Shown here: positions 27,765 to 62,979 of the stretch, one piece after another
Position numbering within the stretch: the first letter of the stretch is position 1
Layout of the letters: each line of letters begins with the position of its first letter
Assembly: GCA_050298595.1 (NCBI GenBank)
Contig: JBNKUM010000089.1
Span: 13,299 to 77,298, forward strand
From: Gammaproteobacteria bacterium
GTDB lineage: Bacteria; Pseudomonadota; Gammaproteobacteria; GCA-001735895
Length of the DNA stretch: 64,000 nucleotides
Reading direction: 5' to 3'
The notes under the pieces: generated by a model
Database searches by the model: none
Told to the model about the DNA's origin: nothing
The model's input: the letters and a program-made list of their open reading frames with translations, nothing else
Made by a program: the position numbers and the translations under genes

Positions 27765-28883
27765 ATGTATATTGAACAGATCATGACACGCCATGTAGAT
27801 ACTGTGACTGAGGATATGAAGCTTAGTCAGGCATCTCACCTGATGCAGCAAAAAGGTCGTCGCTTCATGCCTGTGGTGGATGAAAATAATCAACTACTAG
27901 GTCTACTCACCCGGGCTGAAATTATCCGCGCCGAACCTTCGGCTATCACTACCCTGTCGGTCGGTGAAGTCAATTACCTGATGTCCAAACTACGTGTGGC
28001 GAATGTAATGGCCAAAGAGGTCATCACCTGCGGCCCGGACACGCTGGTTGAACAGGCTGGTCAAAAAATGCGCGACAAAAAGATAAGCTGCCTGCCAGTT
28101 GTAGATAAAGGTAAGCTCATTGGGATTATCACCGGGGTGGATATCATGGACTTTTTACTTGATATAACTGGTTGCAATCTAGCGGAAAGCACCCGCATCG
28201 CACTCAATCTCAGCGATGAACGCGGCACTCTCGGACATTTACTGGATGACATCACAGCACTGGGTGGATATATCGCTACAGTTGTGTCTCCCTACAGCCG
28301 AGATGATCAGGGCAAACGCACGGTCATCCTGCGCCTTACTGCGGAAAATCCACAGGCCATTATAAAATCCCTGAGCGAAAAGGGTTACGAGTTAATAACT
28401 AACACTCCACCTGCTGAAGTCCCTACGACTCAAACTAAAGCGACATCTCATTCCAGCGACGAACCGGGGGCGCAACAGATTGCCGAGTTTATGCAACAGC
28501 ACGATAAGTTCGCCAAACTACTAGGCATTCAAATGATTGATGTAAAACCCGGCTACGCACAGACCCGCATGGTGGTGCGAGAAGACATGCTCAATTCAAT
28601 CAATATCACACACGGTGGCGCAACGTTTAGTCTCGCTGACTATACCTTTGCACTGGCTTCTAACTCACATGGCATGGTGTCTGTTGGACTGAATGCTCAG
28701 ATCAACTATACCTCACCATCAAACATAGGAGACATACTCACCGCCACCGCTACTGAAAACAAAATCAGCACACGCAGTGGACTGTATACCATCGAAATCA
28801 AGCGTAGTGATAACACCCTGATTGCACTATTTACCGGCACTGTGTTCCGGCGTAACGACTACATGCAACAGTGGATGAAGTGA
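27765..28883 (+). CDS. CBS-CBS-ACT (AcuB-like) domain fused to a PaaI-type hot-dog thioesterase
   Basis: N-terminal CBS pair (MTRHVDTV...MPVVD; [14 protein letters not shown]), ACT-like segment, linker, then C-terminal [28 protein letters not shown]. Confidence 0.85.
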
Positions 28884-28923
28884 ACCCAATACAATATTAA
28901 TCAGAACTGACAAGAGGAAATCA

Positions 28924-30228
28924 ATGATACTGCATACAGATATTGAAACCATGTCCAGGGAGCAACTGGAGGCACTCCAGTTGCAGCGTTTACAAAACAC
29001 GGTTGAGCGTTGTTATGCCAATGTTAAAAGCTATCGTGATTCAATGGATGAAATCGGCTTTAAACTCGAGCATTTAAAAAGCCTGAAAGACCTTCGGCAT
29101 CTTCCATTTACCGAAAAAGATCATCTACGCGCCAATTATCCATTTGGCTCTTTTGCCATACCGCGTGAACAGGCTGTTCGCTTACATGCTTCCTCTGGTA
29201 CTACCGGCAAACCCACCGTGGTTGGTTACTCCAGACGAGACATCGACACCTGGTCTGATCTGATGGCACGCTCCATTGCATCGGCTGGCCTGAAGCCGGG
29301 TAACTGTTTTCATAATGCCTATGGATATGGTCTTTTTACCGGCGGACTTGGTTTTCATTATGGCGCTGAAAAACTCGGCTGCACGGTAACCCCCATATCT
29401 GGCGGGCAGACCCAGAAGCAGGTCATGCTACTGAATGACTTTGCCGCCGACGGGCTGGGATGTACGCCCTCCTACGCCTTGAATATCGCTGAAGAAGCAG
29501 AAAAAGAAGGTGTCGATTTTCGTCAGCTACCACTTAAGATTGGCATCTTTGGTGCCGAACCCTGGACCGAAGAAATGCGCAGTCAAATCGAATCCCGTCT
29601 TGGAATTGATGCGATCGACATTTACGGCCTGTCAGAAATCATGGGGCCAGGGGTGTCGGTGGAATGTATCGAAGCCAAGAACGGTCTGCATGTCTGGGAA
29701 GATCATTTTTATGTGGAGATAGTCGACCCTGATACCGGAGAGCCATTGCCCTATGGTGAACAGGGCGAACTGGTGTTCACCTCACTCACCAAGGAAGCGT
29801 TTCCGATCCTGCGCTACCGTACCCGTGACATCTCCACTCTGGATGCCGCACCCTGTTCCTGTGGACGAACCCATGTACGTATGCAACGTATTACCGGGCG
29901 CTGTGATGACATGCTCATCATTCGCGGGATTAATGTGTATCCCTCTCAGATTGAATCGGTACTGGTGCGCTCGCAAACACTCAGCCCGTTTTACCAGATT
30001 GAGATCTTTCGTGAAGGCACTATGGATCAACTGCTGGTGAATGTTGAAGCTACCGCCCCACTTGCAGAACAGGGGGAAGAAGCCATGCAAAGAGTGGCTG
30101 CCCAGGTGATGCGCGATATCAAGGATTTTATCGGCGTATCCTGCAAGGTTGAAGTCAAGGGCATCGGCCAGGTACCTCGCTCTCAGGGCAAAGCAGTACG
30201 AGTCATTGACCATCGTCAAAAAATGTAG
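28924..30228 (+). CDS. paaK: Phenylacetate-CoA ligase
   Basis: [41 protein letters not shown]. Confidence 0.93.
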
Positions 30229-30318
30229 CCTTAAAACTGACATTTATTAACCCCCATTTAGGCTTCCCTGCCATAATTGGGCGCAATTTTTTACTGTGAT
30301 TTCTGTAAAGGTATTCAT

Positions 30319-32208
30319 ATGAGTCCACAGCAACAAAAGCTTGATCAACAACGCCTCTTCATGTCGGGTAACGAGGCTGTTGCCCTCGGTATGTGGCAGG
30401 CTGGTTGTCGTGTTGCCGCCGCTTACCCCGGCACACCATCCACCGAAATTCTGGAATATGCCGCCCAGTATGAGGACATGTATAGCGAATGGTCAGTCAA
30501 TGAAAAGGTATCACTGGAAGTCGCCATTGGTGCCTCGCTGGCAGGTAGCCGAGCTTTTTGTGCGATGAAACATGTTGGCCTGAATGTCGCTTCCGATGCA
30601 TTGATGAGCCAGACACTCGCTGGGGTTAACGCTGGACTGGTGATTGCAGTCGCCGATGACGTAGGTCTTTCCTCTTCGCAAAACGAGCAGGATTCACGCT
30701 ACTGGGGACGCTTTGCGCATGTGCCGATACTGGAGCCCTGTGACTCGCAGGAAGCCTACGAAATGTGTGCCTCAGCATTCGAGATTTCTGAGCAATTCGA
30801 TACGCCTGTTATCCTGCGCCTGACCACTCGCATCTGTCATGTAAAAGGCGTTGTAGTCGCCAGTGGAGAGCGTTGGCAACGCAGCGAAGAAAAAAGCTTC
30901 GAATACACACCCAACAAATACGTGATGACACCGGCTAATGCGCGCGGGCGCATTCCATTGATGTTCGAACGCGACAATCAACTTGCCAGTTACAGCGCAA
31001 CAAGCAAGTTAAACTACGCGCTGGAGGGCAGTGATAAACGCATTGGCTTTATCACCTCAGGGCCGACCTTTTTACACGTACAGGAAGCATTCCCCGATGC
31101 ACCTATTTACAAGCTGGGGATGAGTTACCCAGCACCGATGGAAAAGCTGCGTGAATTTGCTACTTCTGTAGAAAAACTGATCATAGTGGAAGAAATCGAA
31201 CCATTGCTGGAAACTGAAATGAAAGCCGCAGGCATCGATGTGATCGGCAAACATCTGCTACCGAAGTTTGGTGAATTATCACCACAGGTTTTACTGCCAG
31301 CCATCAACCCCTTGCTGGGCCGAGCCGATATTAAAGCCCAGCCCGAGACCCAGAATGTCACAGTAAAACTCGATGTAAGCAAAACAGGCGCTGAGATATT
31401 CCCACGCCCACCCACCATGTGCGTGGCCTGTCCACACCTCGGTATCTACTACACATTGTCGCATATTCGAAACAAAATCATTTCCGGGGATATCGGCTGT
31501 TACACACTGGGAGCCGGTCATCCGTGGAACTCTCTGGATAGCTGTATCTGCATGGGTGCCTCCATGGGCGTTGCTCATGGACTGGATAAGGGTCGCACTG
31601 AAGCCGATGCCAACAAAAGCATTATTGCAGTCATCGGTGACTCAACCTTTATGCATATGGGCATGCAGGGCCTGCTCGATATCGCCTATAATAGGGGCAA
31701 TGTCACTGTACTATTGCTGGACAATCGCGCTGTTGGGATGACCGGTGGACAGGAAAACCCGGGCACAGGGCACGACATACATGGCAATGAAACCCCTAGA
31801 GTCGATTTTCGTAAACTCACTGAAGCTATTGGCATCAAGCCAGAACGTATTCACGAGGTGAATCCCTACGAATTACCCACTTTATTTAAGGCCCTGCGTG
31901 CTGAAACCAAAATAAATGAAGCTTCGGTTATTATCACTAATCAGCCCTGTGTACTGGTCGATTACTATGCGACCAAGGCTCCCTATGAAGTTAAAGAGGA
32001 TGTCTGTACCGGCTGCACCAACTGCCTGGATGTCGGGTGCCCGGCAATCAGCGTAACCCGTCGCGAAACCGTAATGAAACCCAACGGCAAGGAAAAAGAG
32101 CTCGCGTTCGTCAGCATAGATAGCCAGGCATGTACCGGCTGCGAACTCTGCCTGAAAACCTGTGGCCCGAATGCCATTCTACCTGTCGCTGATTTTTCCA
32201 GAGGTTAA
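30319..32208 (+). CDS. iorA: Indolepyruvate:ferredoxin oxidoreductase alpha subunit
   Basis: SGNEAVA, YPGTPSTEI, MKHVGLNVA, GDIGCY, GDSTF TPP motif, C-terminal ferredoxin CxxCxxC; start taken at ATG 30319. Confidence 0.93.
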   Translation: MSPQQQKLDQQRLFMSGNEAVALGMWQAGCRVAAAYPGTPSTEILEYAAQYEDMYSEWSVNEKVSLEVAIGASLAGSRAFCAMKHVGLNVASDALMSQTLAGVNAGLVIAVADDVGLSSSQNEQDSRYWGRFAHVPILEPCDSQEAYEMCASAFEISEQFDTPVILRLTTRICHVKGVVVASGERWQRSEEKSFEYTPNKYVMTPANARGRIPLMFERDNQLASYSATSKLNYALEGSDKRIGFITSGPTFLHVQEAFPDAPIYKLGMSYPAPMEKLREFATSVEKLIIVEEIEPLLETEMKAAGIDVIGKHLLPKFGELSPQVLLPAINPLLGRADIKAQPETQNVTVKLDVSKTGAEIFPRPPTMCVACPHLGIYYTLSHIRNKIISGDIGCYTLGAGHPWNSLDSCICMGASMGVAHGLDKGRTEADANKSIIAVIGDSTFMHMGMQGLLDIAYNRGNVTVLLLDNRAVGMTGGQENPGTGHDIHGNETPRVDFRKLTEAIGIKPERIHEVNPYELPTLFKALRAETKINEASVIITNQPCVLVDYYATKAPYEVKEDVCTGCTNCLDVGCPAISVTRRETVMKPNGKEKELAFVSIDSQACTGCELCLKTCGPNAILPVADFSRG

Positions 32209-32210
32209 CT

Positions 32211-32816
32211 ATGAAGACAGCAAACTCTATCACCAATATCCTGGTCGCCGGCATTGGTGGACAGGGGGTAATGACCGCTGCCGAAATCTTATCGCAAACC
32301 GCGCTATCACTCGGCTACGATGTGAAAAAAACCGAAGTCGCTGGTATGGCCCAACGTGGTGGCATAGTAACCTCGCATGTGCGTTTTGGTGATAAAGTTC
32401 TATCACCGGCCATCCCGCATGGAGAAGCAGACATACTGGTGGGTTTTGAACCAGCCGAGGCACTACGCTGGATGCAGGAACTAAAGCCCGATGGCGTCGC
32501 CATGGTTAATCTCGACCAGCAAAAGCCCCCGATAGTCAGCATCGGCCTGTTTGATTACCCCGAAAACCCGGTCGCACAAATGCAGGCCAGTGGTATCAAG
32601 GTATTCCCCTTCGAAGCCGGTAAAATCGCGCGGGATCTGGGCAACTTTCGTCTGGTCAATAGTGTTATGCTAGGCGCTATTTCCAGTTACCTGCCTTTCG
32701 ATAGCGACATTTTGAAAAATTCCATTCTGGATCGTTTCCGTAAGAGCAAGCCAAAGCTGGTTGATATCAATAAACTGGCATTTGAATGTGGCAGAGAATC
32801 TGTCGCTCAGGCCTGA
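32211..32816 (+). CDS. iorB: Indolepyruvate:ferredoxin oxidoreductase beta subunit
   Basis: AGIGGQG, GMAQRGG...SHVRFG. Confidence 0.93.
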   Translation: MKTANSITNILVAGIGGQGVMTAAEILSQTALSLGYDVKKTEVAGMAQRGGIVTSHVRFGDKVLSPAIPHGEADILVGFEPAEALRWMQELKPDGVAMVNLDQQKPPIVSIGLFDYPENPVAQMQASGIKVFPFEAGKIARDLGNFRLVNSVMLGAISSYLPFDSDILKNSILDRFRKSKPKLVDINKLAFECGRESVAQA

Positions 32817-38015: not shown

Positions 38016-38100
38016 GCCGGACCTTTCTTGCCTTAAGCGGATGCCGACTAGATTAGTCGCTGCTCTTCGCGCGGTCAATCACCGGACAATGTAAGGACTC

Positions 38101-39477
38101 TTAAGCACATATTTGCTGATACATTTGCATGGCACTGGAAGACTCCTTGCCGGTTAAAATGAAACCAACCAGCTTGCCTTCAGACAGGTACTCAATATGC
38201 TGATCGTTCACATCTCTGCGCTCCAGCGCACTTTGATCCAGAGTATTTGGCAGACATATAGTAAGTGGAAAACTCGGTGTTTTCACGCGCACCAGAGGAG
38301 ATACTGACTGAAAAGGTACAACATTCCCTTTCAGCTGAGCTGCAATAGTTTCAGCCTGCCGACGTATGGGCTCTATGTACGCAAATATCTGACCATCAAC
38401 CTCTGCACAATCTCCAATTGCATACACATCGGCAACTGAACTACGCATCAGGTGATCGGTGATAATACCCTTACCTACTACCAGCCCGGCTTTTTCGGCC
38501 AGTTGTGTATTGGCCTGTAAGCCCGCAGCCGACAACACCAGATCGGTTTCCAGTGCCGTTCCGTCAGCAAGAACGGCTCGTAAACGGTCAGCATTGTGCT
38601 CTACCTGATCCAGCGTAGTACCCAGATGCCAGTCAACACCTCTTTGCTGAAGCTGGGCCTTTAATTGCTGTGATACATCATTCGGTAGCAAACTGGGCAT
38701 TGCGTGATCACCAGGTTCGATCACACTAACCTTGTAACCTGCTGATGACAAATCTTCGGCAAATTCACAGCCGATAAGGCCTGCGCCCAGAATGGTGACA
38801 TGTCGAACACCTTCATCCAGACGTTTACGTAATTTTTTATACGCCATCAGGTCATTAACACTGACAACGCTTTGGGCGGCATCACCCGCTATGGGTATGT
38901 GACGCTGATGCGCGCCCATGGCGAGAATTAAATGGCCATACTGAATGCCACCTTTTGATGTGGTAATACGCTTTTTCTGCGTATCTATCTTGATCACTCG
39001 GGTTTCGGTTCTCACATCGATATTTAACGATTCAGCTTTGCTGGCCGCATCCATATCGGATAGATCTTCTACTGTTTTACCTTTTGCCAGCGCTGTAGAC
39101 AACGCCGGTTTTGGGTAAATGATGCCTTCGCAGGCTGATACTAAAAGCACAGGCGTTTGCTGGTCCAGTTTACGCACGGCCTCTGCCACCGACCAGCCAC
39201 CGATGCCTGAACCAATAATAACGATGGCATCTTCACTACCTCGACTCGTTTTCTTAGCTGCCGATTTGACAACCTTACTCACAGCAGCCATTACCGGGGC
39301 ATCCGGTAACAGACGTAAATCACTTTTAGTCAGACCACATAATGGGCACTCCCAGTCATCAGGGATATCCTCAAAGCGCGTTCCAGCTATTAGTCCCGAA
39401 TCCGGATCCCCGACGGCTTCATCATAGATAAACCCACAGGCATCGCACACATAACGTTTAAAGTCTGACACAGTCAT
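38101..39477 (-). CDS. Rubredoxin fused to an NAD(P)H:rubredoxin reductase-like flavoprotein
   Basis: CDACG...[10 protein letters not shown] rubredoxin, then [20 protein letters not shown] and YAIGDCA. Confidence 0.92.
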
Positions 39478-39480
39478 TAT

Positions 39481-39861
39481 CTAGCCCTCATCTACCGAGT
39501 TAATGATATTGCTAAAAATTTCATCCAGTTCCTGACCGATAGCTTCAAGCTCTGGCGAATTAAATGGTGTAAATACTTCTCCAGGCATACGGCAGGCAAC
39601 GATGACGTCTTCATCCTGCTCATAAACATGGATTCGCAAAGGAATATCATGCCCTGCTGGCTTGCAGGCTTGCCACACTCGAATGGCAAAATCGGGCCTG
39701 AATACTTCCAGGATTTGGTCAGCGGGTACGGTTTTACCCATTTTGGCTGCATTGGCCTGACCATTAATATGCGCGACGACACGCATGTTGTTTTGTTCAA
39801 TGGCAGCAAGCAAGGTTTCTACAGTTTGCTCCGCTGACAGATTGGATTTGATTTGTTTCAT
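39481..39861 (-). CDS. DUF302 family protein
   Basis: VVAHINGQANA...LEVFRP...PLRIHVYE pattern. Confidence 0.8.
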   Translation of the reverse strand: MKQIKSNLSAEQTVETLLAAIEQNNMRVVAHINGQANAAKMGKTVPADQILEVFRPDFAIRVWQACKPAGHDIPLRIHVYEQDEDVIVACRMPGEVFTPFNSPELEAIGQELDEIFSNIINSVDEG

Positions 39862-39910
39862 CGCATTCTCTTTTATAGAGTGAGGGGCTTAACGCCCCTC
39901 GTGATTAGGA

Positions 39911-41044
39911 TCAGGCTGCGACTGCTACGGTGTCGAGTTCTTTACGCAGATGTTTGATTGCCGGTGTTACGATGGCAATAAAATATGACTCACGTAGTTT
40001 CCTCTGTGCAGGAGCTTCCTTCAGATAACCCTTTGCACCCGTGTGCATCATAGCTGACTGAGAAGCCCGAATGGCCAGTTCACCGGCAGCCAGACGCAGT
40101 TGCAAAATCTCGCGGAAAAACTCATCCGAGGTTTCGAAAGGATCCTCAGCCAGTGCCAGAGTAGCCTCAACAGCGTCATCCAGCTCTTCCTGAAGTTCAT
40201 CAGGTCTATCTTCAAGATAACAGTTAACGTGACCTAACAGTGGCTCTACTTCACGGCTGATATCGATACAGGATTGAATATTGCCAACGCCCATACCAAA
40301 TTGCAGCAATACCATACCGGCACGAATGCGTTTCAGGAATGCTGCACCATCGTGATCAATAATCATTGAGTCTGGAATAAATACATTGTCAAAGATACAG
40401 GCAAAGGTTCTGGTGCCTTCCAATGCGGTAAAATGCGCGGAAAGTCTGAGTGTAAAACCCTCCGTTGAACAATCTACCAGCGCCATTACCGAGCGACCAT
40501 TTGCACCTTCCAGTTCGAATAAGGTACCAAAGACGTGGTTTTCTCCCAGATTAGATACCCAGGGCAGAGAACCGTTGACGATATATCCACCGTCAACTTT
40601 CTTACCTTTCAGACGTAGAGGCTCGATACCGGCAAATGCCTTCATAGTATTCGACATACCGGTACCAGCGAGTACCTCACCGCTGGAAACCTTTGGTAAC
40701 CAGATGTCACGTACCTCTGAATTTTCTGCATTTTGCAGATACCATCCACAGGTATCCTGACACCACATGGTAAACCCGGTCGACAGGCATTCATGCGAAA
40801 CGGTAGCCATCGCCAGAATAGCTGCTCCCATATCATGAGCGCCATCTGGGCGTGCAAAAGGCAGGTGCTGTTTAAAAGCACCGATGGGGCCAAGTTGACG
40901 CAGGATTTCTTCAGGATAATAACCTTCAATATCAATCTTGTTGGTTAATGGCTTTAAGCTGGTATCGACAATCTGCTGTGTCGCGACTATTAATTCATCG
41001 ACAGATAACAGCTCGTCGATCTTTTTCATTGAGGTTTCGCTCAT
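39911..41044 (-). CDS. Acyl-CoA dehydrogenase-fold flavoprotein (possible monooxygenase)
   Basis: GGYIVNGSLPWVSN, HTGAKGY, RKLRESYFIAIVTPAIKHL; divergent from canonical ACADs. Confidence 0.8.
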   Translation of the reverse strand: MSETSMKKIDELLSVDELIVATQQIVDTSLKPLTNKIDIEGYYPEEILRQLGPIGAFKQHLPFARPDGAHDMGAAILAMATVSHECLSTGFTMWCQDTCGWYLQNAENSEVRDIWLPKVSSGEVLAGTGMSNTMKAFAGIEPLRLKGKKVDGGYIVNGSLPWVSNLGENHVFGTLFELEGANGRSVMALVDCSTEGFTLRLSAHFTALEGTRTFACIFDNVFIPDSMIIDHDGAAFLKRIRAGMVLLQFGMGVGNIQSCIDISREVEPLLGHVNCYLEDRPDELQEELDDAVEATLALAEDPFETSDEFFREILQLRLAAGELAIRASQSAMMHTGAKGYLKEAPAQRKLRESYFIAIVTPAIKHLRKELDTVAVAA

Positions 41045-41070
41045 AGCTATGGCTCCTTTAAAACCGACAA

Positions 41071-41619
41071 TTAAGCAGGTTGAACTTCCAGCGCTACATT
41101 GTTACGTAGTGTATTCGCAACTGGAGACCAGACATTTGAATGGGCAATGATTTCATCGATCTGCTCTTTGCTGGCATCTCCTTCTGCATCAATCTTCACA
41201 CGCACTGCTGAAAAACCCAGAGTCTTGGCTTCATCCAGATCTCCAGTTCCCCATACGGCGGTAACATTAATATCGCCTTCCAGTTCTAATTCCAGCTTGC
41301 TTAGCTTAATACCACGAGCTGTTGCATTGGCATGCACACCTACTGCAAGACAGGCTCCCAGAGTAGCCAGTACCGCTTCTGATGGATTGGGTGCATTATT
41401 TTCACCTAGCAGATGAGGAGGCTCATCAATCAACATAGGCTCAAGGTCACGGACATAGGTTTGCATACGAAACTGACCTTCACATACGGTCTTTGCCTTC
41501 AGAGTCACTACTGATTCCGGATTAGCCTTACCTTTTTCACCCAGTTCTTTTAGACCTTCGCTATCCAGTGGACGCAGGCAGCTCATATTTTTTGCAATTG
41601 TTTGTTGATTTACACTCAT
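41071..41619 (-). CDS. OsmC/Ohr-like protein
   Basis: DEPPHLLGENNAPNPSEAVLATLGACL; the usual second Cys-Pro appears as WSPV. Confidence 0.85.
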   Translation of the reverse strand: MSVNQQTIAKNMSCLRPLDSEGLKELGEKGKANPESVVTLKAKTVCEGQFRMQTYVRDLEPMLIDEPPHLLGENNAPNPSEAVLATLGACLAVGVHANATARGIKLSKLELELEGDINVTAVWGTGDLDEAKTLGFSAVRVKIDAEGDASKEQIDEIIAHSNVWSPVANTLRNNVALEVQPA

Positions 41620-41662
41620 GTTAATTCTCCAAATGGTTATTAGTTAAACATACTGGAGATAT

Positions 41663-41678
41663 TGCAACGGTCGAGCCA
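41663..41678 (-). promoter_or_regulatory. Sigma54 -24/-12 promoter of the osmC-like operon
   Basis: Minus strand TGGCTC-GACCG-TTGCA (GG-N10-GC). Confidence 0.85.
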
Positions 41679-41752
41679 TATGATGAATAATCCTGTTAAA
41701 TCAATCACTTATATAAAATACAAGGATCACTCATCAGCCACAACAAAACTCT

Positions 41753-41766
41753 TTGTCGACATTGTC
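41753..41766. promoter_or_regulatory. Putative activator binding site TTGTCGACATTGTC
   Basis: About 75-90 bp upstream of the sigma54 promoter; recurs at 43439 and 46640. Confidence 0.7.
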
Positions 41767-41808
41767 CATTGCTTACGAACACTTTGTCATCAATGTCACT
41801 GGACAATG

Positions 41809-43428
41809 TCAAACGTCCAGCTTCAATTTCTTAATCCGATAGCGGAACTGGCGCGGCGTCATACCCAGACTCATTGCTGCACGCGTCTTATTACCCTGCT
41901 GCTGCGCCAGAGCCTGCAGGATTTGCTCGGACTCATCCTCTCTCACCCTTAAATAGGGTCGCAATCCATCAGTTGCCATAGAGCCTGGATTGAAATCTAC
42001 TACAGGCATTGTGGTCTCTGAATTTATTGCTTGCGGCTGCTCTGTAACATCCTGTATCTCTGGCGAATTTACACCCACCTCATCATCCAGAACCTGTTTT
42101 ATCAGTTCCTGTGATATCTGACTATCTACACATAACAACACTGCCCGTTTAACCAGATTTTCAAGCTGCCTGATATTGCCCGGCCATGGGTACTGCTCCA
42201 TAATTCTTAAGGCACCGGTAGTAAAACTCTGCTGGCGACCATATTCTTCATTGGCCAGGTTCAGAAAAAACCGACACAGTATAGGGACGTCTCCTCTGCG
42301 CGCGCGCAGTGGCGGCAAACGGATAGGGAAAACATTCAGACGATAGAAAAGGTCGAGTCGAAAGCGGTTTTCATTCACCGCTTCCTGCAGGTTTTTATGC
42401 GTGGCAGCCAGTATTCTGACATCAACATTAATATCCTTACTGCCCCCCACCCTTTGTATTACCTTATACTCCAGCACCTTGAGCAACTTGGCCTGTAGAT
42501 CAAGATCCATATCGCCAATTTCGTCCAGAAATAAGGTGCCGCCAGAGGCCAGTTCTATCTTGCCCTGCTTGGTACTGACCGCACCTGTGAAGGCACCTTT
42601 CTCATGACCAAACAACTCTGATTCGATCAATGCTGACGGGATAGCTGCGCAATTAATACTGACAAAGGGCCCCTGAGCTCTTTTACTCGCCAGATGCTGC
42701 ATACGCGCAAACCTTTCCTTACCGGTACCCGACTCACCCAATAACAGTACGGTGGTATTGGTATCAGCGACCTGTAATGCCTGCTGTATTGATTGATGTA
42801 AGGCAGGGCTCTGACCCATAATCCCGAACTGAGCGCCTTTACTTTCCAGTGTATTTTTTAATAACAGGTTTTCAGACATTAACTGAGCCGTACGTTCTGA
42901 AATCAGCTCATTGATCACCAGCACCTGCGCAATAAAGGTGGCCATCACCTGCAGCAAAGCAAGGTCTCTGGCGAAGGGTCTTTCTCTGACACGCAATCGA
43001 TGCAAGGCAAGCACACCAATCGGGGACTCATCTGCGATGATAGGTACTGCCATATAGGAAACGACTTCATCGGGTAAGGTACTACGATCAACGGCTCTAG
43101 CAAGATAGGTTGGCTCTTCGTCAATATTCTGAATCAACGCAATCTGACCCGTTTTATACACCTTGCCGGTGACTCCTTCTCCGAACTGATAGCTCCCTCG
43201 ATCACGCTCGTCTTTGGTCAATCCATAAGAGTACTGGATTACCAGGCTACCGTTTTCAAGATCAGGCAGTAATACGCGCCCCCGGTTTAAACCGAGCAAT
43301 TGGGAAAGCAATCTTAATATGCCCTGGATGGCAGGGCCTGGTTCTACGTATTTGGTTATTAGCTTGGATGCTTCATGTACAACCAGCAATTCTGATTCAA
43401 GAATGGATGACTCACTACTCAGATCCAT
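41809..43428 (-). CDS. NifA-like sigma54 activator (GAF-AAA+-HTH)
   Basis: GAF domain, GESGTGKE, ESELFGHEKGAFTGA, WPGNIRQLEN, C-terminal HTH; AGGAG RBS before ATG 43428. Confidence 0.92.
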   Translation of the reverse strand: MDLSSESSILESELLVVHEASKLITKYVEPGPAIQGILRLLSQLLGLNRGRVLLPDLENGSLVIQYSYGLTKDERDRGSYQFGEGVTGKVYKTGQIALIQNIDEEPTYLARAVDRSTLPDEVVSYMAVPIIADESPIGVLALHRLRVRERPFARDLALLQVMATFIAQVLVINELISERTAQLMSENLLLKNTLESKGAQFGIMGQSPALHQSIQQALQVADTNTTVLLLGESGTGKERFARMQHLASKRAQGPFVSINCAAIPSALIESELFGHEKGAFTGAVSTKQGKIELASGGTLFLDEIGDMDLDLQAKLLKVLEYKVIQRVGGSKDINVDVRILAATHKNLQEAVNENRFRLDLFYRLNVFPIRLPPLRARRGDVPILCRFFLNLANEEYGRQQSFTTGALRIMEQYPWPGNIRQLENLVKRAVLLCVDSQISQELIKQVLDDEVGVNSPEIQDVTEQPQAINSETTMPVVDFNPGSMATDGLRPYLRVREDESEQILQALAQQQGNKTRAAMSLGMTPRQFRYRIKKLKLDV

Positions 43429-43438
43429 AACTACTCCT

Positions 43439-43452
43439 GACAATGTCGACAA
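43439..43452. promoter_or_regulatory. Putative operator next to the activator RBS
   Basis: GACAATGTCGACAA, the exact reverse complement of 41753-41766. Confidence 0.7.
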
Positions 43453-43588
43453 TGGAGTCAGTATGCTGATTAGCGATAGAGAATCTAATTTTTGCTAAGG
43501 CTCAGACAATCCTCACAAGCCTGGTGCATTAAAAGCAGTTAGCGCACCATGCTAGCGCACTAACTGCCCCAAAACGAACCTCCCAGGC

Positions 43589-44431
43589 TTAGTCCTGATT
43601 ATGCCAACTGAAACGCTTTATAAAGCTGACACAGATTGCATCGAGAAAAAATCCAATAACCCCGATGATCACCACCATGGCTGCCAGAGTATCGTATTCC
43701 AGTGTATCTCGTGCATCATTGATCGCATAACCTAATCCGCTGGTTACTCCCAGATATTCAGCAGGAACCAACACTATCCAGGCAACACCAACAGCCAGAC
43801 GAATACCGGCAAATACATCCTGACCTATGGCTGGCAATATAATACGCCAGAGCATCTGTGTACCACCAGCGCCCAGGTTTTTCGCCACCTTGAACCATAA
43901 TGGATCGATGCGACGAACGCCCTGTGCCGTTGAAAAAACAATGGGCCAAATTGCCGCAATGGCGATCAGAAAAACGATTGCACTATCCCAGGTGGCAAAG
44001 GCCATTACCGCAATAGGCATCCACGCTAGTGGAGAGATCATTCTCAGAAACTGAAAAGGCACATGTGTCAACTCACGCATACGGGCAAACAAGCCGATAG
44101 CTACACCAACTGGCACTCCGATCATCACAGCCCACAAAAGCCCATTACCTATTCTTTGCAAACTGGGTACAGAGGCTTCGATCATATATCCGCTAGTAAC
44201 CAGATCAATCAGGCGACTAAAGGCCGGGCCTGGAGCAAAGTCCGCAAATGATTCGGTATCAGGGTTGTTAGCTATAATCCAGCCACCCAACCACCACAGA
44301 CTCAGCATTATCAGAATACCTGCTGCTGGATAACCCAGGCGGCTCACTAAGAACTCTCCAATACGCGGCCAGTTTATTCCCATTTCAGATTTGCTCGTTT
44401 CAAAAGTCATTACGGACTGTGGTGTACTCAT
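43589..44431 (-). CDS. NitT/TauT-family ABC permease
   Basis: FLRMISPLAWMP, WIVLVPAEYLG. Confidence 0.92.
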   Translation of the reverse strand: MSTPQSVMTFETSKSEMGINWPRIGEFLVSRLGYPAAGILIMLSLWWLGGWIIANNPDTESFADFAPGPAFSRLIDLVTSGYMIEASVPSLQRIGNGLLWAVMIGVPVGVAIGLFARMRELTHVPFQFLRMISPLAWMPIAVMAFATWDSAIVFLIAIAAIWPIVFSTAQGVRRIDPLWFKVAKNLGAGGTQMLWRIILPAIGQDVFAGIRLAVGVAWIVLVPAEYLGVTSGLGYAINDARDTLEYDTLAAMVVIIGVIGFFLDAICVSFIKRFSWHNQD

Positions 44432-45666
44432 ATCTTCACCACTTCTTTTCTCTCATACGGATTTGCTGCATCTACACCTGGTGAATTCTCCCAGCCTTTG
44501 TATTTTTCCATCGCTGCTTTTACATGCTTGTAATCAACCAGGTCATCCGCCACAAATTGAGGGTCCAGCTTCTTGATAAAGGTGTTGTCGCCACTCACCA
44601 GGGTATCGCCCATTGCATCAACAATCATCTTGGTAGCAGATGGGTATGGATAGGGAGAGAAGTCGATACGACCATTGCCAAACGCAGACTTGTTACGAAT
44701 CGCATCAGGACTGGCATATTTATCTTCATCATAGTAGGTCATGGCCCTTACCACTGCCTTGCCCGGCATAGGAAGGTATTTTTTACCATCTCTCGACATC
44801 ATCATCGCAACTTCTTCCTTATTCTGCTGGGCGTAAACCTCTGCCCGCACGATGGCATTCATGACTTTCTGCGTCCATTCTGGTTTTGCATTAACGGTGT
44901 TTTCATTCATGCAGATAACACAGCAAGGATGGTTCTTCCACATATCGCCCGTGAAGCGCAACACCTTACCGCCTGCTTTCATTTCACCGAAGGCATTAAA
45001 TGGCTCTGCGACGATGAAGGCATCAATCTTTTTCGCTGCCAGTGCGGGTGGCATATCTGGAGGAGGCATGATCATCAGATTAACTTCATCCTTCGCCAGT
45101 TTGGCTTTTTGATCTTTGATGACGGGCTTCAGGCCGGCACTACGTAAGCCCATCTGCAGAACAATATTGTGCATGGAATACCAGTAGGGAACTGCAATCT
45201 GCATACCACCCAGATCCTTAAAATCTTCTGCGCCCGTATGCTTACCAACAACCAGAGCAGATCCATTTATATGTGCCCAGGACATGATCTTAACGGGAAA
45301 ATCATTGTTATAACGCATCCAGACTGGAATCGGTTTAAGGAAATGTACCAGATTGAATTTACCAGCGGCAAAGCCTTCTACCAGAGGAGACCAGCCACGA
45401 ATCAGAGTCGGTTTTTCTGCTTTAAGACCTTCGTCTTCAAAAAAGCCCATACCATGCGCAACCAGCAACGCGGTAGCATCGGTTATGGGTAGATAACCGA
45501 TCCTGACTACCTCATCATCGGGAGGCGTCATACCCGCCAGACTCATACCCGGCATGGTCAGGCCAGCAGCCAGCCCACCCATCGCCATCATGTCGAGCAT
45601 AAAGTCTCTACGGCTCATTTCATGCTTGTAAATATATTCTAATTCATCATCTTTTTGCTTGCTCAT
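44428..45666 (-). CDS. NrtA/CmpA/CynA-like ABC substrate-binding protein
   Basis: Tat-like SRRDFM, RIGYLPITDA, AEPFN, HPCCV. Confidence 0.88.
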   Translation of the reverse strand: MSKQKDDELEYIYKHEMSRRDFMLDMMAMGGLAAGLTMPGMSLAGMTPPDDEVVRIGYLPITDATALLVAHGMGFFEDEGLKAEKPTLIRGWSPLVEGFAAGKFNLVHFLKPIPVWMRYNNDFPVKIMSWAHINGSALVVGKHTGAEDFKDLGGMQIAVPYWYSMHNIVLQMGLRSAGLKPVIKDQKAKLAKDEVNLMIMPPPDMPPALAAKKIDAFIVAEPFNAFGEMKAGGKVLRFTGDMWKNHPCCVICMNENTVNAKPEWTQKVMNAIVRAEVYAQQNKEEVAMMMSRDGKKYLPMPGKAVVRAMTYYDEDKYASPDAIRNKSAFGNGRIDFSPYPYPSATKMIVDAMGDTLVSGDNTFIKKLDPQFVADDLVDYKHVKAAMEKYKGWENSPGVDAANPYERKEVVKI

Positions 45667-45699
45667 GGTACATCTCCAAGGTTAATAAATTTGTTTGGT

Positions 45700-46518
45700 T
45701 CAGGCAGCTTTCTGATCGGAATCTTGCTTGTTTTGGGAAGTTACTGCTGCTTCAGATTCTGTTTCATGCGGGTGAATATCACCCACCAGGCTTTCAAACT
45801 TAGACATCAACTGTTCACGTTGGCGACTAAATTCAGCCGAAGCTCTATTGCGAGGAAGTGGCAAATCTATATTGACCTCACCAACAATCCGTCCAGGGTT
45901 GGCCGACATGATGAGTACACGGTCAGCCATCGCAACCGCTTCATCGATATCGTGGGTCACTATGACCATTGTCAGGCCTTCCTGAGTAACGATGTTCGCT
46001 ACATCGTCCTGCAGACTGGCACGGGTAAAGGCATCCAGCGCTGAAAAAGGTTCATCCAGTAACAGCAATTCCGGCGAGGTCGCCATAGAGCGGGCTACTG
46101 CTACACGCTGCTGCTGACCACCTGACAGGCTCTGTACATTGGCATCAGCCTTATCCGACAGACCTACCATGGCCAGCAGTCGATCTATCTTTTTAGCATC
46201 GCGCTTACCGGTGAATATCAATCCCAGTTCAGCGTTCTCGCGTACGCTCATCCAGGGATATAAAGAGGGTTTCTGAAACATCATGTTCCATTTTGCACTG
46301 GGCTTGGTCACAGTATGCCCATGAATACGCACACAGCCCTGAGATGGCATCAGTAATCCCGCCAACATATGTAACAGCGTGGATTTTCCACAACCACTAC
46401 GTCCGATAAGAGCGATTTTTTCGCCCGGTTTAATCTGTAACTCTATATTTTCAAGGGTTGGCTGCTTCTGCCCCTTAAATGTGTGAGTGATGAAATCGAT
46501 ACTTAAGTTTGCACTCAT
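45700..46518 (-). CDS. NitT/TauT-family ABC ATPase
   Basis: GRSGCGKST, LSGGQQQR, DEPFSALD, THDIDEA. Confidence 0.93.
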   Translation of the reverse strand: MSANLSIDFITHTFKGQKQPTLENIELQIKPGEKIALIGRSGCGKSTLLHMLAGLLMPSQGCVRIHGHTVTKPSAKWNMMFQKPSLYPWMSVRENAELGLIFTGKRDAKKIDRLLAMVGLSDKADANVQSLSGGQQQRVAVARSMATSPELLLLDEPFSALDAFTRASLQDDVANIVTQEGLTMVIVTHDIDEAVAMADRVLIMSANPGRIVGEVNIDLPLPRNRASAEFSRQREQLMSKFESLVGDIHPHETESEAAVTSQNKQDSDQKAA

Positions 46519-46552
46519 GGCAATACCTCAAAACATAATTTGATTTCTTCAA

Positions 46553-46568
46553 TGCAGGGATCATGCCA
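46553..46568 (-). promoter_or_regulatory. Sigma54 -24/-12 promoter of the ABC operon
   Basis: Minus strand TGGCAT-GATCC-CTGCA (GG-N10-GC). Confidence 0.8.
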
Positions 46569-46639
46569 TAAGCATTACTGTCCGTTTCAGCCGTTTCATT
46601 ACGACTTTCTCTACCTTTGTCCATTCTGTCATGTCCACA

Positions 46640-46653
46640 TTGTCGACTTTGTC
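46640..46653. promoter_or_regulatory. Putative shared activator site between the divergent promoters
   Basis: TTGTCGACTTTGTC, one mismatch to 41753-41766, within a TGTC-rich tract. Confidence 0.7.
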
Positions 46654-46731
46654 GGACAAACTCAGCGCTCTTTAGCCCTTCATATACATGTTTTTATGTA
46701 CACAGCTAATAACTTCCCCAAAAAACGACTC

Positions 46732-46747
46732 TGGCATTGCATTTGCA
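46732..46747 (+). promoter_or_regulatory. Sigma54 -24/-12 promoter of cynS
   Basis: TGGCAT-TGCAT-TTGCA. Confidence 0.85.
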
Positions 46748-46800
46748 TTGCAGCAATTACCAATAACTGAATCGTTACTAATTAATCGAGGTAAAAATCT

Positions 46801-47241
46801 ATGAATAAACACGAAATGAAAGAAGCCATACTGGCTGCAAAAAAAGATAAAGGACTCAGCTGGGCAGCCATTGCTGAAGCAGCCGGACTGGCGCCTGAAT
46901 ATACCACCTCAGCCTGCCTGGGCATGAATCACCTGGAAAAAGAGAATGCAGATCCAGTAGCAGAGATTCTGGGACTGGGTGCAGATCTTTCATCTGCTCT
47001 ACAGGACTACCCGAACAAGAAATGGGAACAGATGGTACCTACTGACCCTGTCATTTATCGCTGGTATGAAATTGTTGGTGTGTATGGCGAAACCATTAAA
47101 GAACTGATCCATGAAAAATTTGGCGATGGCATCATGTCAGCTATCGATTTCACCATGAATATCGACAAGCAGGAAGATCCTAAAGGAGACCGAGTCGTGG
47201 TAACACTGAATGGTAAATTCCTGCCTTATAAATCCTGGTAA
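46801..47241 (+). CDS. cynS: Cyanase
   Basis: PTDPVIYRWYE, HEKFGDGIMSAIDF, GKFLPYKSW. Confidence 0.97.
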   Translation: MNKHEMKEAILAAKKDKGLSWAAIAEAAGLAPEYTTSACLGMNHLEKENADPVAEILGLGADLSSALQDYPNKKWEQMVPTDPVIYRWYEIVGVYGETIKELIHEKFGDGIMSAIDFTMNIDKQEDPKGDRVVVTLNGKFLPYKSW

Positions 47242-59170: not shown

Positions 59171-60178
59171 TTACTCATCAGTTTTTAGCTCTTTAGATTT
59201 TACGAGCCCTTCCAGCGGACTAATGACACCCTTTCCACCACGACCAATGACGTGGGTATAGATTTCAGTTGTTCTCACATCACTATGCCCTAATTGTTCC
59301 TGTACAGTACGTATGTCCATTCCCCTTTCTAGCAGGTGTGTAGCAAATGAGTGGCGCAAAGTATGACAGGTAGCAGGTTTTTGAATACCCGCTTTGAGTA
59401 CCGCAGACTTAACCGCTTTTTGCAGAGCAGAAGCATCCAGATGGTGTCGACGTGTAATCCCGCTACGAGGATCAACACTACGTTTGGATGCCGGGAAAAC
59501 ATACTGCCATCCCCACTCCCTATCAGCATTCGGATACTTCCGAGCTAACGCATGTGGTAAATACACCTTACCGAACCCATCAGCCAAATCCTTATCATGC
59601 ACATTCTTCACCGCTGATAAATGTCGTTTCAATGGAACCACCAAATCCCTGGCAAGCGTCACAACCCGGTTTTTCCCGCCTTTTCCAGCAATAATCATTA
59701 CCGACAAATGATCGAAATCAAGGTTATGGATCCGAAGCCTCAAACACTCCATCAACCTTAACCCGGATCCATACATCAATGCTGCTGCAAGCCACTGACT
59801 ACCATCCAAATGTGCAAACAAGTCGGCGACTTCCAAAGGTGTTAAAACTACAGGAATCTTTGGGCGCTTTCTCGCACGGACGATACCTTTTAACTCACCC
59901 AAAGGGCGCTCAAGAACCTTCGCATACAAAAAAACTAAAGCATTAAGCGCCTGGCTTTGCGTTGATGGAGCAACATCACTGTATACAGACAAGTGAGTGA
60001 GGAATGTGACAACATCCACTTCACTAAGGTTTTTGGGATGCGCTTTGTTATGGAACAGAATAAAACGATAAATCCAGCTCATATACGTTTTTTCAGTAGT
60101 AAATGCATAATGTCCAACACGTAAAATCTGGCGAACACTCTCCATAAAAGGTGATTTTACTGGGTGACTTTCTTCCAT
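59171..60178 (-). CDS. intI: Integron integrase
   Basis: Tyrosine recombinase catalytic motifs (YGSGLR, GKGGK, HTLRHSFATH, LGH, IYTH) plus the IntI-specific insertion VYLPHALARKYPNADREWGWQYVFP. Confidence 0.97.
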   Translation of the reverse strand: MEESHPVKSPFMESVRQILRVGHYAFTTEKTYMSWIYRFILFHNKAHPKNLSEVDVVTFLTHLSVYSDVAPSTQSQALNALVFLYAKVLERPLGELKGIVRARKRPKIPVVLTPLEVADLFAHLDGSQWLAAALMYGSGLRLMECLRLRIHNLDFDHLSVMIIAGKGGKNRVVTLARDLVVPLKRHLSAVKNVHDKDLADGFGKVYLPHALARKYPNADREWGWQYVFPASKRSVDPRSGITRRHHLDASALQKAVKSAVLKAGIQKPATCHTLRHSFATHLLERGMDIRTVQEQLGHSDVRTTEIYTHVIGRGGKGVISPLEGLVKSKELKTDE

Positions 60179-60194
60179 ATCTAGCCTTCATATT

Positions 60195-60209
60195 GTTCTC
60201 AGTTTGTTC
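60195..60209. promoter_or_regulatory. GTTC-N7-GTTC direct repeat (alphaproteobacterial-type LexA box) upstream of intI
   Basis: GTTC-TCAGTTT-GTTC, 16 bp from the intI ATG. Confidence 0.5.
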
Positions 60210-60499
60210 TCATTCAGACCATAATGAATTTAACTTTAAATTTCAAGCTTCTCGTTCCAATATCATGGAAAATTGCGTTAATATTACAGGGGTGCTAAAG
60301 TTCCAGCCCTCAAATCCTGATTTAAGTATCTGAAATACAAGGTAATTTTAGGATATACTGTGAGGTATATATGGTTTCAATTGGTTGATATGCCGCAAGT
60401 TGCGTCTTTTTCACAACATCTGGAACCTGAAATACCAGTTTAAAGTTGCCGTTAAGTAACTGATATAAAAGGGAAATGAATGAATAAACCGCGAATAAA

Positions 60500-60556
60500 T
60501 ACAGCTACACCGTTGCGTGATATGTTGCAATTTGCGGGTTATTCCAACTGTTATGC
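60500..60556 (+). other. Putative attI (core GTTATGC at 60550-60556)
   Basis: The core precedes the first cassette ORF and is complementary to GCATAAC of attC1; left boundary approximate. Confidence 0.8.
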
Positions 60557-60560
60557 ATAA

Positions 60561-61001
60561 ATGAAAAACTATCGCACATTCCTTTTTGTTCTTCTCACAG
60601 TATTTATATCTGGCTGCAGTCAGAAGAGACTTGAGGAAATAACTAATGCCGGAGCAATAGCCGTCACATTGGTTATCGCAATACCTGTGATAGTGGTTTA
60701 TTCTCCTGTTATTCTAGCCAAATTCATCAAGGAAAGAAGAGATTCAAAGTTAAAGGAGGTTAAAATAAATGGTGAAGATTTTGTAGAGCTAGGTGTTGAC
60801 GTATCTAAAGCTGATATAAAGCTGTTACTGGGGGAACCAACAAATAAGTACGCTTGTATCAAACCGAAGTTCGAAATTTGGGAATATGATTTTTCCCAGC
60901 TTAAGGATCAGAAGTATATTGTTTTTGGGGAAGATGATCTAATTCAGTTTTACCCTACGACATGGAAAGTTTCAGACACTTGTTACCAAGTTACTAGCTA
61001 A
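60561..61001 (+). CDS. Cassette 1: putative lipoprotein
   Basis: Lipobox ISGC; SmpA/BamE-like motif SKADIKLLLGEP...WEY. Confidence 0.75.
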   Translation: MKNYRTFLFVLLTVFISGCSQKRLEEITNAGAIAVTLVIAIPVIVVYSPVILAKFIKERRDSKLKEVKINGEDFVELGVDVSKADIKLLLGEPTNKYACIKPKFEIWEYDFSQLKDQKYIVFGEDDLIQFYPTTWKVSDTCYQVTS

Positions 61002-61019
61002 AAATAGAGATAATATATT

Positions 61020-61095
61020 GCATAACAAGGCATTTTCAGTCGGAAATTTTGTTCCGTTACACTCCATAAAATCCCGCTGAAATGCGACGTTAGGT
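61020..61095 (+). other. attC site 1
   Basis: GCATAAC...imperfect palindrome...GTTAGGT. Confidence 0.9.
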
Positions 61096-61121
61096 TTTTA
61101 AAAGGAGGAGGAACAGGGTCT

Positions 61122-61430: not shown

Positions 61431-61447
61431 CCGTCAAGCTGCAGAAA

Positions 61448-61563
61448 ACCTAACACACACATCCAGCCGACCCACAACTCCGCGCGGTTTTTTTGCGCAT
61501 GGCTTCGCCATTATTGCGCAAACGCCGCACTCCGTTGTGGTCGGCTGATGTTAAGCGTTAGAT
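61448..61563 (+). other. attC site 2
   Basis: ACCTAAC...cagccgacccacaac/gttgtggtcggctg...GTTAGAT. Confidence 0.9.
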
Positions 61564-61573
61564 TGGGAATGAC

Positions 61574-62967: not shown

Positions 62968-62979
62968 GCAATAAAATAT

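Follow-up and report, generated by a model that had tools for sequence, protein, structure and literature searches.

To our knowledge thiocyanate is degraded by just two types of enzyme, one a cobalt hydrolase and the other a copper dehydrogenase. Thiocyanate hydrolase is a cobalt enzyme of the nitrile hydratase type that gives carbonyl sulfide and ammonia, and copper thiocyanate dehydrogenase is a periplasmic enzyme that passes electrons to cytochrome c. The latter is reported as the 'cyanate pathway' of Thioalkalivibrio and Thiohalobacter (PMC5328954, PMC6504805). For cyanate itself, PMC6627978 describes assimilation by the cynFABDS system of Pseudomonas pseudoalcaligenes CECT5344, which is induced by cyanate, repressed by ammonium and dependent on CynF. 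Here we analysed a related gene cluster at positions 38101..47241 of a 64,000-nucleotide stretch of a gammaproteobacterial genome (contig JBNKUM010000089.1, assembly GCA_050298595.1), which is called the window below. The cluster combines the cyanase gene cynS, an ATP-binding cassette (ABC) importer and a sigma-54 activator gene with a four-gene operon, hereafter the module, for an OsmC-like protein, a flavoprotein of the acyl-CoA dehydrogenase (ACAD) fold, a DUF302 protein and a rubredoxin-reductase fusion. We propose, with a probability of roughly 0.4, that the region is one sigma-54 regulon whose module turns an imported S-C-N anion, most likely thiocyanate, into cyanate for CynS.

Like the window, cynFABDS unites a sigma-54 activator and cyanase with an ABC importer from the nitrate/cyanate superfamily, and in both a sigma-54 promoter precedes the structural genes (PMC6627978). 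This likeness is one of gene content and description. In contrast to cynFABDS, cynS of the window has its own divergent promoter, the permease and ATPase of its importer score under the nitrate-type cut-offs, and four redox genes have been added as an operon that shares the promoter type and the upstream box. Judged by this description, cynS, importer and regulator resemble the known system, and the four-gene operon is the unexplained addition. The first-pass annotation had proposed an undescribed cyanate-yielding catabolic system linked to cyanase; the tie between redox genes and cyanase was borne out by our analysis, whereas the set of cynS, importer and activator turned out to have been described already as cynFABDS. 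In the literature, supplements aside, we found no paper treating the module of OsmC-like, ACAD-fold, DUF302 and rubredoxin-reductase genes; PMC9062700 deals with cyanase and OsmC in separate sections.

Nine open frames fill the region. Eight lie on the minus strand, in the transcription order ATPase, binding protein, permease, activator, OsmC-like protein, ACAD-fold flavoprotein, DUF302 protein and rubredoxin-reductase fusion, and cynS is divergent on the plus strand (Table 1). Families were assigned by Pfam and NCBIfam scans of the open frames of the window, using the curated NCBIfam cut-offs, and every gene listed in the first-pass annotation was recovered as an open frame at the given place and with the family stated.

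Three -24/-12 promoter-like sites precede the OsmC-like gene, the importer operon and cynS, and a box of the shared type ACATTGTCGAC / TGTCGACA occurs three times: ahead of the OsmC-like gene, at the regulator start, and in the region between cynS and the importer. Window-wide, the TGGC-N8-TGC pattern was not enriched (11 sites versus 11.9 expected); three of the 11 sites fell exactly in the three promoter regions and on the correct strand. In the related loci described below, where the pattern was counted within 260 nt upstream of a gene, it preceded the OsmC-like gene in 44/51 loci, the ATPase gene in 32/32 and cynS in 30/36, in the last case mostly 61-79 nt before the start, compared to 9/51 for the ACAD, 3/43 for the reductase and 5/34 for the binding protein gene as internal-gene controls. 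It was also present upstream of the regulator gene in 32/43 loci, a position at which the window itself has no such site. The word ACATTGTC had nine sites in the window, a number reached by 0 of 100 shuffles. Together with TGTCGACA it was the commonest 8-mer upstream of the OsmC-like gene (42-43 of 51 loci), and related 8-mers were found in 18-22 of 32 importer and 13-20 of 36 cynS upstream regions. The copy of the box at the regulator start may serve autoregulation. One further ACATTGTC half-box, which may be due to chance, is located just past the reductase stop codon at 38085-38092.

Since the three -24/-12 sites are accompanied by a shared box, we read the region as a regulon in which one dedicated activator would drive the OsmC operon, the importer and cynS. 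The promoter type and upstream box common to the redox operon, cynS and the importer support the earlier claim of a functional tie between redox genes and cyanase, and that the whole forms one regulon connected to cyanate metabolism is very probable.

Table 1. Genes, promoter-like sites and boxes of the cynS cluster (window coordinates).
Feature	Position	Strand	Evidence
Rubredoxin fused to NorW-like NAD(P)H:rubredoxin reductase	38101-39477	-	Pfam Rubredoxin 75, Pyr_redox_2 198, Rbx_binding 36 bits
DUF302 protein	39481-39861	-	Pfam DUF302 37 bits
ACAD-fold flavoprotein	39911-41044	-	Pfam Acyl-CoA_dh_N 38.9 bits
OsmC-like protein	41071-41619	-	Pfam OsmC 69 bits
-24/-12 (sigma-54) promoter-like site before OsmC-like gene	41664-41678	-	TGGCTCGACCGTTGC, 45 nt upstream of start
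Upstream box, presumed activator-binding site, before OsmC-like gene	41754-41766	.	TGTCGACATTGTC
GAF / sigma-54 AAA+ / HTH_8 activator	41809-43452	-	Sigma54_activat 237, GAF 60, HTH_8 43 bits
Box at start of regulator gene	43439-43451	.	TGTCGAC palindrome 43444-43451; ACATTGTC 43439-43446
ABC permease	43589-44431	-	BPD_transp_1; TIGR01183 (nitrate permease) 129 bits, under cut-off 209
NMT1_2-type periplasmic binding protein, NrtA/CmpA/SsuA superfamily	44428-45666	-	NMT1_2 145 bits
ABC ATPase	45700-46518	-	ABC_tran 129 bits; TIGR01184 ntrCD 216.5, under cut-off 291.8
-24/-12 promoter-like site before importer operon (ATPase gene)	46554-46568	-	TGGCATGATCCCTGC
Box in cynS/importer divergent region	46637-46647	.	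ACATTGTCGAC
-24/-12 promoter-like site before cynS	46732-46746	+	TGGCATTGCATTTGC, ~55 nt before ATG
Cyanase CynS	46801-47241	+	NF002773 212 bits (cut-off 150); TIGR00673 172 (cut-off 113); both Pfam cyanase domains

To follow the cluster across genomes, one genome per species was scanned, which yielded 54 loci, and gene presence was scored by tblastn with the window proteins; 27 of these loci had at least 8 kb on both sides and form the full-flank subset. The OsmC-like gene was found in 52/54 loci, the other two being cut at the ACAD gene, and in 27/27 of the full-flank subset. The corresponding numbers were 47/54 and 26/27 for the rubredoxin-reductase, 46/54 and 25/27 for the regulator, 42/54 and 23/27 for DUF302, and 33-35/54 and 22-23/27 for an importer of the same type. 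As this gene set recurs in 54 loci, the grouping is not due to chance, and the cluster is almost certainly a real, conserved unit. In the neighbourhood survey that the first-pass annotation had asked for, cynS accompanied the pair of OsmC-like and ACAD-like genes in 36/54 loci and in 21/27 with full flanks, so that its own counter-scenario, homologous clusters usually lacking cynS, did not materialise. In five genomes whose locus lacked cynS, the gene was present elsewhere (5/5).

Moreover, cynS travelled with the module through rearrangements. In Acidithiobacillus the order is regulator, OsmC-like protein, ACAD, reductase, formate/nitrite-family channel, porin-like protein, cynS and rhodanese. 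Two Aquabacterium loci (L057, L063) carry a canonical unit of regulator and divergent ABC-cynS genes, the same order as in cynFABDS, followed by rhodanese, OsmC-like protein, ACAD and reductase, the module thus coming after the regulator. An Armatimonadota contig has the order OsmC-like protein, rhodanese, ACAD, cynS. An ABC-cynS row in the alphaproteobacterium G675 is convergent with OsmC-like, ACAD, rhodanese and reductase genes, no sigma-54 regulator being detected there, and the link was also kept in Cardiobacteriales after rearrangement. In one congener (L013, 5745-7409) an AHH-nuclease-like gene, an unknown open reading frame (ORF) and a type VI secretion system Hcp gene are inserted between importer permease and regulator.

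Concordantly, in an even sample of the class the flavoprotein family was detected in 13/400 genomes and cynS in 55/401. All 13/13 family genomes carried cynS, compared to 42/388 genomes without the family, and in 10/13 cynS was located on the same contig within ~10 kb of the flavoprotein gene. In the genus of the window, 6/14 genomes had a flavoprotein orthologue and 6/14 had cynS, with both in five; the exceptions were G012, a 74% complete genome with the ACAD gene on a 2.8 kb contig, and G006, which had cynS only. The family was found in 3/301 genomes of an alphaproteobacterial sample. In genomes rich in ACAD paralogues 5-6 candidates were scored each, so family counts are floors. Two unpublished genomes are included, G068 among the 55 with cynS and G667 among the 3/301, and no conclusion depends on either. 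Carriers were mostly sulfur oxidisers, with Acidithiobacillus and Acidihalobacter as acidophiles among them.

The flavoprotein matched 2267 database proteins at E <=1e-20; the best 120 of these were 77-100% identical to it and bore names that include Chromatiales, Sedimenticola and Thiodiazotropha. At E <=1e-30 the family comprised 148 clusters at 50% identity. Its AlphaFold2 model had a predicted local distance difference test (pLDDT) score of 96.3, and the nearest folds in the PDB were short-chain ACADs with template modelling (TM) scores of 0.83-0.85 at 17-20% sequence identity, which places the protein in the ACAD fold. Of the Pfam ACAD models only Acyl-CoA_dh_N was matched, the middle and C-terminal models being unmatched, whereas true ACADs of relatives (L007, L008), used as a control, matched all three. 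Profile alignments to solved ACADs ended at the invariant E352, which is paired with the Asp of an 'RDA' motif; we take the loop after E352 to be the site of the MCAD-type catalytic Glu, the base residue of true ACADs. Base positions were placed by alignment with two true ACADs from relatives. In 62 members, residues 357-362 were A/S, I/V, V/L, T/S, P and S/A without a conserved acid, position 360 being T in 54, S in 7 and P in 1 of them, and the IVD-type base position 244 was occupied by F, M, I, L or V, again without a conserved acid in 240-247. Strongly conserved residues were C86 (60/62), W94 (62/62) and C95 (55/62), and further family-specific residues were Q96, S131-N132, K135, S164-N165, Q248, E352 and T360-P361. 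Taken together, these features point to a distinct, uncharacterised ACAD-fold family that probably lacks the catalytic base. The possibility raised in the first-pass annotation as fatal to its reading, a true acyl-CoA dehydrogenase, was not confirmed, as neither a catalytic Glu at the MCAD- or IVD-type position nor more than one of the three Pfam models was found.

Several ACAD-fold enzymes other than acyl-CoA dehydrogenases act on sulfur or on carrier-bound substrates. Rv3094c (7f70), 3-sulfinopropanoyl-CoA desulfinase (5af7), FkbI (1r2j) and the prolyl-carrier-protein dehydrogenases (4irn) have the same fold and gave weak profile matches to the flavoprotein (E ~1e-11), but none of them is close to it, and true short-chain ACADs scored better. 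The DszC- and SfnB-type oxygenases that the first-pass annotation had cited as precedents were absent from the PDB matches listed, where Rv3094c is the one known ACAD-fold oxygenase to appear, far down at E 7.8e-12. Concerning the electron partner, the cluster encodes a rubredoxin reductase and not a flavin reductase. A complex prediction of flavoprotein, FAD and OsmC-like protein, run without controls, scored 0.00 and is informative neither way. An apparent ACAD-rhodanese fusion in L058 was rejected as an artefact of ORF calling, the genes being in different frames. A distant flavoprotein paralogue, 29% identical and with one in-frame TGA, was found in genome G405 (contig C75, L067 8792-13225). 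It stands behind a CMD/AhpD-like protein instead of OsmC, and the ABC system after it shares 41-46% identity with that of the window; the regulator at this locus is divergent and of the AraC type, and cynS is on another contig.

The OsmC-like gene always lies directly upstream of the flavoprotein gene. Its product is the most conserved component, with 77-92% identity among the listed homologues from different orders and 50-92% identity to the window protein across 52 loci. C90 is its only invariant cysteine, and the usual second-cysteine position is an invariant Ser165 (16/16 sequences). We thus rejected a two-cysteine hydroperoxidase of the OsmC/Ohr type, for which the fold is right and the second, resolving cysteine is replaced by Ser165. 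The closest structure, GSU2788 (2opl), has the same long OsmC form, 30% identity and also a Ser at the second-cysteine position; the entry comes from structural genomics, bears the title hypothetical / OsmC-like protein and states no function. The DUF302 protein had 1j3m (E 0.004) and 1q9u (E 0.018) as its closest solved chains, both of them weak matches. The reductase carries the rubredoxin CxxC pairs CDAC and CPLC and FAD and NAD(P) motifs, and is the presumed electron donor of the module. Two described systems with similar components did not fit. The NorW model NF003437 scored 297.9 bits on the reductase, under its cut-off of 392, which together with the NorR score (346.6 versus 476) and the lack of a flavodiiron protein in the cluster excludes the NorR/NorVW nitric-oxide system. 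Likewise, for the selenocysteine-assisted organometallic (SAO) system, described in bioRxiv 10.1101/2022.07.06.499078, all scores stayed under the cut-offs (SaoA 213.5 versus 360, SaoP 139 versus 295, SaoX 60.8 versus 300, OsmC-related 53.1 versus 95).

The link to sulfur that had been postulated from the window gained support from the related loci. A two-domain rhodanese was located in or beside the module in 13/54 loci, and also in G675. These rhodaneses form one dedicated clade, eight copies that were compared being 50-87% mutually identical with a common CFKGARAS loop, and in L019, L057 and L063 the gene has its own -24/-12 site, TGGCAC-N5-TTGC. The rhodanese was present in 6/8 of the loci judged to lack DUF302 versus 6/42 with DUF302, where two pairs are congeners. 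These proportions give a hint that the two proteins may substitute for each other. Between regulator and OsmC-like gene, beside the module rhodanese, a small CopD-domain membrane protein is encoded in L019 (7021-7488) and L023 (7628-8098).

For the regulator, the best NCBIfam match was NifA (TIGR01817) with 449.4 bits, under the cut-off of 528.85. A NifA identity was rejected on this score and on the lack of nif genes in the window, and we read the protein as a dedicated, CynF-like regulator. The closest solved relatives of the binding protein were the regulatory domains of NrtC/CmpC and NrtA (2g29), so the importer is a member of the nitrate/cyanate superfamily whose permease and ATPase stay under the nitrate-type cut-offs. 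An HPCC motif of the binding protein was considered as a special feature and dismissed: it is also present in the canonical nitrate-type binding proteins of the loci and is therefore a family feature. Four loci of Chromatiaceae type (L029, L031, L039, L045) have a second sigma-54 activator with an ABC system beside the module and its own importer, and in L039, the one annotated, permease and ATPase of this second system pass the nitrate-type cut-offs. Because a canonical nitrate-type ABC system thus adjoins the importer of the module, the arrangement of two importers side by side suggests that they have different substrates.

In Acidithiobacillus a formate/nitrite-family channel and a porin replace the ABC system. 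Cyanate decomposes fast in acid, whereas thiocyanate is stable. For the acidophilic carriers external cyanate is therefore unlikely as the only substrate, and thiocyanate is favoured there. Overall, we would give thiocyanate somewhat less than even odds of being the substrate.

No gene for the gamma subunit of thiocyanate hydrolase (TIGR03887) was found among the window genes scanned. The statement in the first-pass annotation that no known thiocyanate enzyme is recognisable thus stood for these genes and failed for the genome, in which contig C14 encodes a thiocyanate hydrolase. Its gamma subunit of 249 aa at C14:12592-14146 reached 384 bits with TIGR03887 (cut-off 291.45) and belongs to an operon at C14:12111-18769 (L065 112-6770), in which the beta-like subunit is split into parts of 143 and 122 aa and a further NHase-beta-like ORF has 156 aa. 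A second cynS lies 5 kb from the hydrolase, and between them are two LysR regulators and a GlcF-like Fe-S protein that exceeds the GlcF cut-off; hydrolase and second cynS are paired likewise in genome G004. Across the class sample, 10/401 genomes had a thiocyanate hydrolase over the cut-off, and in 6/10 cynS was within 8 kb of the gamma gene, implying that cyanase linkage is a feature of a proven thiocyanate locus. The module resembles thiocyanate hydrolase (scnBAC) in this linkage to cyanase, but none of the module proteins is related in sequence to the hydrolase, which here adjoins two LysR-type regulator genes whereas the module has a sigma-54 activator. Hydrolase and module overlapped in the class sample only in the genome of the window (1/13), numbers too small to claim exclusion. 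A GlcF-like Fe-S/CCG protein directly upstream of cynS was seen in two unrelated contexts, L054 1875-4744 and L065 4967-6770, in the former also with a FAD_binding_4 protein, and may be another recurrent cyanase partner.

In the mechanism we propose, the GAF-domain activator would bind boxes of the ACATTGTCGAC type and fire the three -24/-12 promoters of cynS, importer and four-gene operon, and the importer of the NrtA superfamily would bring in the S-C-N anion. NADH would reduce the FAD of the flavoprotein via the rubredoxin-reductase fusion, and the reduced flavin together with O2 would oxidise (S-oxygenate) the sulfur of SCN-. Cys90 of the OsmC-like protein might then capture the oxidised sulfur with release of cyanate, with DUF302, or the dedicated rhodanese in other genomes, as the next acceptor of the sulfane sulfur, and CynS would convert cyanate to ammonia and CO2. 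Electron transfer from NADH to rubredoxin is downhill, and a rough estimate from free energies puts the (cyanate + S0)/thiocyanate couple at ~ -0.17 V. Oxidation of thiocyanate by NAD+ would thus be uphill, which makes the reductase more likely a donor, and a flavoprotein fed in this way would be an oxygenase or a reductase, not a dehydrogenase; we infer an electron flow from NADH through the reductase to the flavoprotein. A partner protein handling an oxidised, peroxide-like or sulfenyl-type intermediate would fit the exchange of OsmC for a CMD/AhpD-like protein beside the G405 paralogue, as both families are cysteine hydroperoxidase-like.

The reaction proposed, thiocyanate to cyanate and sulfur, is that ascribed to copper thiocyanate dehydrogenase in sulfur-oxidising Gammaproteobacteria (PMC5328954, PMC6504805). 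In contrast to that enzyme the module, known from its genes, would be cytoplasmic, flavin- and cysteine-based and NADH-linked. We put forward tentatively, as a guess that is rather less probable than its contrary, that it represents a third, flavin- and cysteine-based type of thiocyanate degradation, a cytoplasmic conversion of SCN- to cyanate and protein-bound sulfane sulfur that would be widespread in marine sulfur oxidisers, relatives of lucinid symbionts and acidophilic bioleachers, feeding nitrogen assimilation via CynS as well as sulfur oxidation.

Several points weigh against the conversion of thiocyanate by the module. Since cynFABDS alone assimilates cyanate (PMC6627978), cynS, ABC importer and sigma-54 activator are already a complete known unit, and importer and sensor may be cyanate-specific. 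Because this genome and G004 already encode thiocyanate hydrolase beside a second cynS, another route for thiocyanate would in part duplicate it. Furthermore, the flavoprotein resembles FAD-bound dehydrogenases more than the known ACAD-fold oxygenases, the window genome has no rhodanese of the module type (its best matches are 24-30% identical), and a sulfur-carrier role of the one-cysteine OsmC-like protein and of DUF302 is putative. Finally, the co-occurrence counts, including the 13/13 for family and cynS, come from related genomes and overstate independence.

The explanation that survives best beside thiocyanate conversion is a regulon for cyanate alone, with importer and sensor specific for cyanate and a module that handles its side products in sulfide- or persulfide-rich cells, for instance by oxidising thiocarbamate (from isocyanic acid and sulfide) back to cyanate and sulfur or by clearing S-carbamoyl thiol adducts. 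The precedent of cynFABDS with cyanate induction and a sigma-54 promoter (PMC6627978) speaks for it, as do the position of the module directly behind the regulator and ABC-cynS genes in Aquabacterium and beside the ABC-cynS row in G675, the sulfur-oxidising lifestyle of the carriers, the rhodanese link, which fits any sulfur-releasing step, and the hydrolase of this genome, which removes the need for a second thiocyanate enzyme. We nevertheless consider it unlikely: 42/55 cynS genomes of the class sample manage without the module, and four loci place a second canonical nitrate/cyanate-type ABC system beside the importer of the module. In addition, the acid lability of cyanate makes it improbable that acidophiles meet it externally, and we know of no enzymatic precedent for the adduct chemistry.

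Somewhat less probable still is a co-regulated module that is chemically unrelated to cyanate and scavenges another small nitrogen compound, such as a nitroalkane or nitronate, an amine or an amide, under nitrogen-limitation control common with cynS. Control by sigma-54 is a typical trait of nitrogen scavenging, nitroalkane oxidase is itself an ACAD-fold enzyme, and the G405 paralogue, with its CMD/AhpD-like partner, similar ABC system and AraC regulator, has cynS on another contig. Yet the linkage of the module to cynS is specific and survives repeated rearrangement, every one of the 13 family genomes has cynS, the rhodanese association points to sulfur, and the regulator is dedicated with its box in common with cynS.

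More doubtful again is a cyanide oxygenase, in which a peroxyflavin or an OsmC-like sulfenate would oxidise cyanide to cyanate for CynS while rhodanese acts in parallel detoxification. We know of no gene established for a cyanide monooxygenase, an NADH-driven reductase is present, and the module is accompanied by a dedicated clade of rhodanese, the classical enzyme of cyanide detoxification. Peroxide, moreover, oxidises cyanide to cyanate chemically, a treatment used in PMC6627978. Against this, HCN is uncharged and membrane-permeant, which would make an ABC importer or a channel with a porin pointless, sulfur-rich cells quickly turn cyanide into thiocyanate, and no nitrilase or cyanide dihydratase genes were seen in the annotated loci. 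An ordinary acyl-CoA dehydrogenase in a coincidental neighbourhood, to which the best sequence and fold matches among short-chain enzymes would point, is hardly credible in view of the low identity of these matches, the unmatched Pfam models that true ACADs of relatives do match, the absence of an acid at either base position in 62 members, the lack of fatty-acid or ETF genes in the cluster and a neighbourhood kept in 54 loci.

With the flavoprotein family tied to cyanase in every sampled class genome that carries it (13/13), the module is a strong candidate for a missing cyanate-producing step or for an as yet unknown requirement of cyanate metabolism in sulfur-rich cells. Among its carriers are bioleaching acidophiles, in a setting where both thiocyanate and cyanide cause trouble in practice, as well as relatives of sulfur-oxidising symbionts that live with lucinid clams and salt-marsh plants. 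The compact cluster encodes a dedicated sensor and occurs in at least a few cultured strains, such as Thiohalocapsa halophila DSM 6210, Acidithiobacillus ferrianus MG and Zwartia panacis KCTC 42751.

The genes flanking the cluster are unrelated to it, with DUF5062 and a GGDEF protein on one side and the cobalamin genes CobD, CbiB and BluB on the other, and the window belongs to the core chromosome, carrying mnmG, rsmG, parAB, the atp operon and glmUS. Three other parts of the window stood out. At 27765-32816, following a branched-chain/urea-type ABC system, genes for a PaaI-like thioesterase fusion, a PaaK-like phenylacetate-CoA ligase (just under its cut-off) and indolepyruvate oxidoreductase alpha and beta resemble an aromatic-acid activation cluster. 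A low-GC stretch (36-38%) at 2406-6176 on the minus strand contains an ORF of 1256 aa with no NCBIfam match at E <=1e-20. The stretch 59171-63795, where GC drops to ~41%, encodes an integron integrase (TIGR02249, 466 bits, cut-off 265), and the four ORFs downstream of it (146-271 aa), unmatched in NCBIfam at E <=1e-20, are possibly a cassette array.

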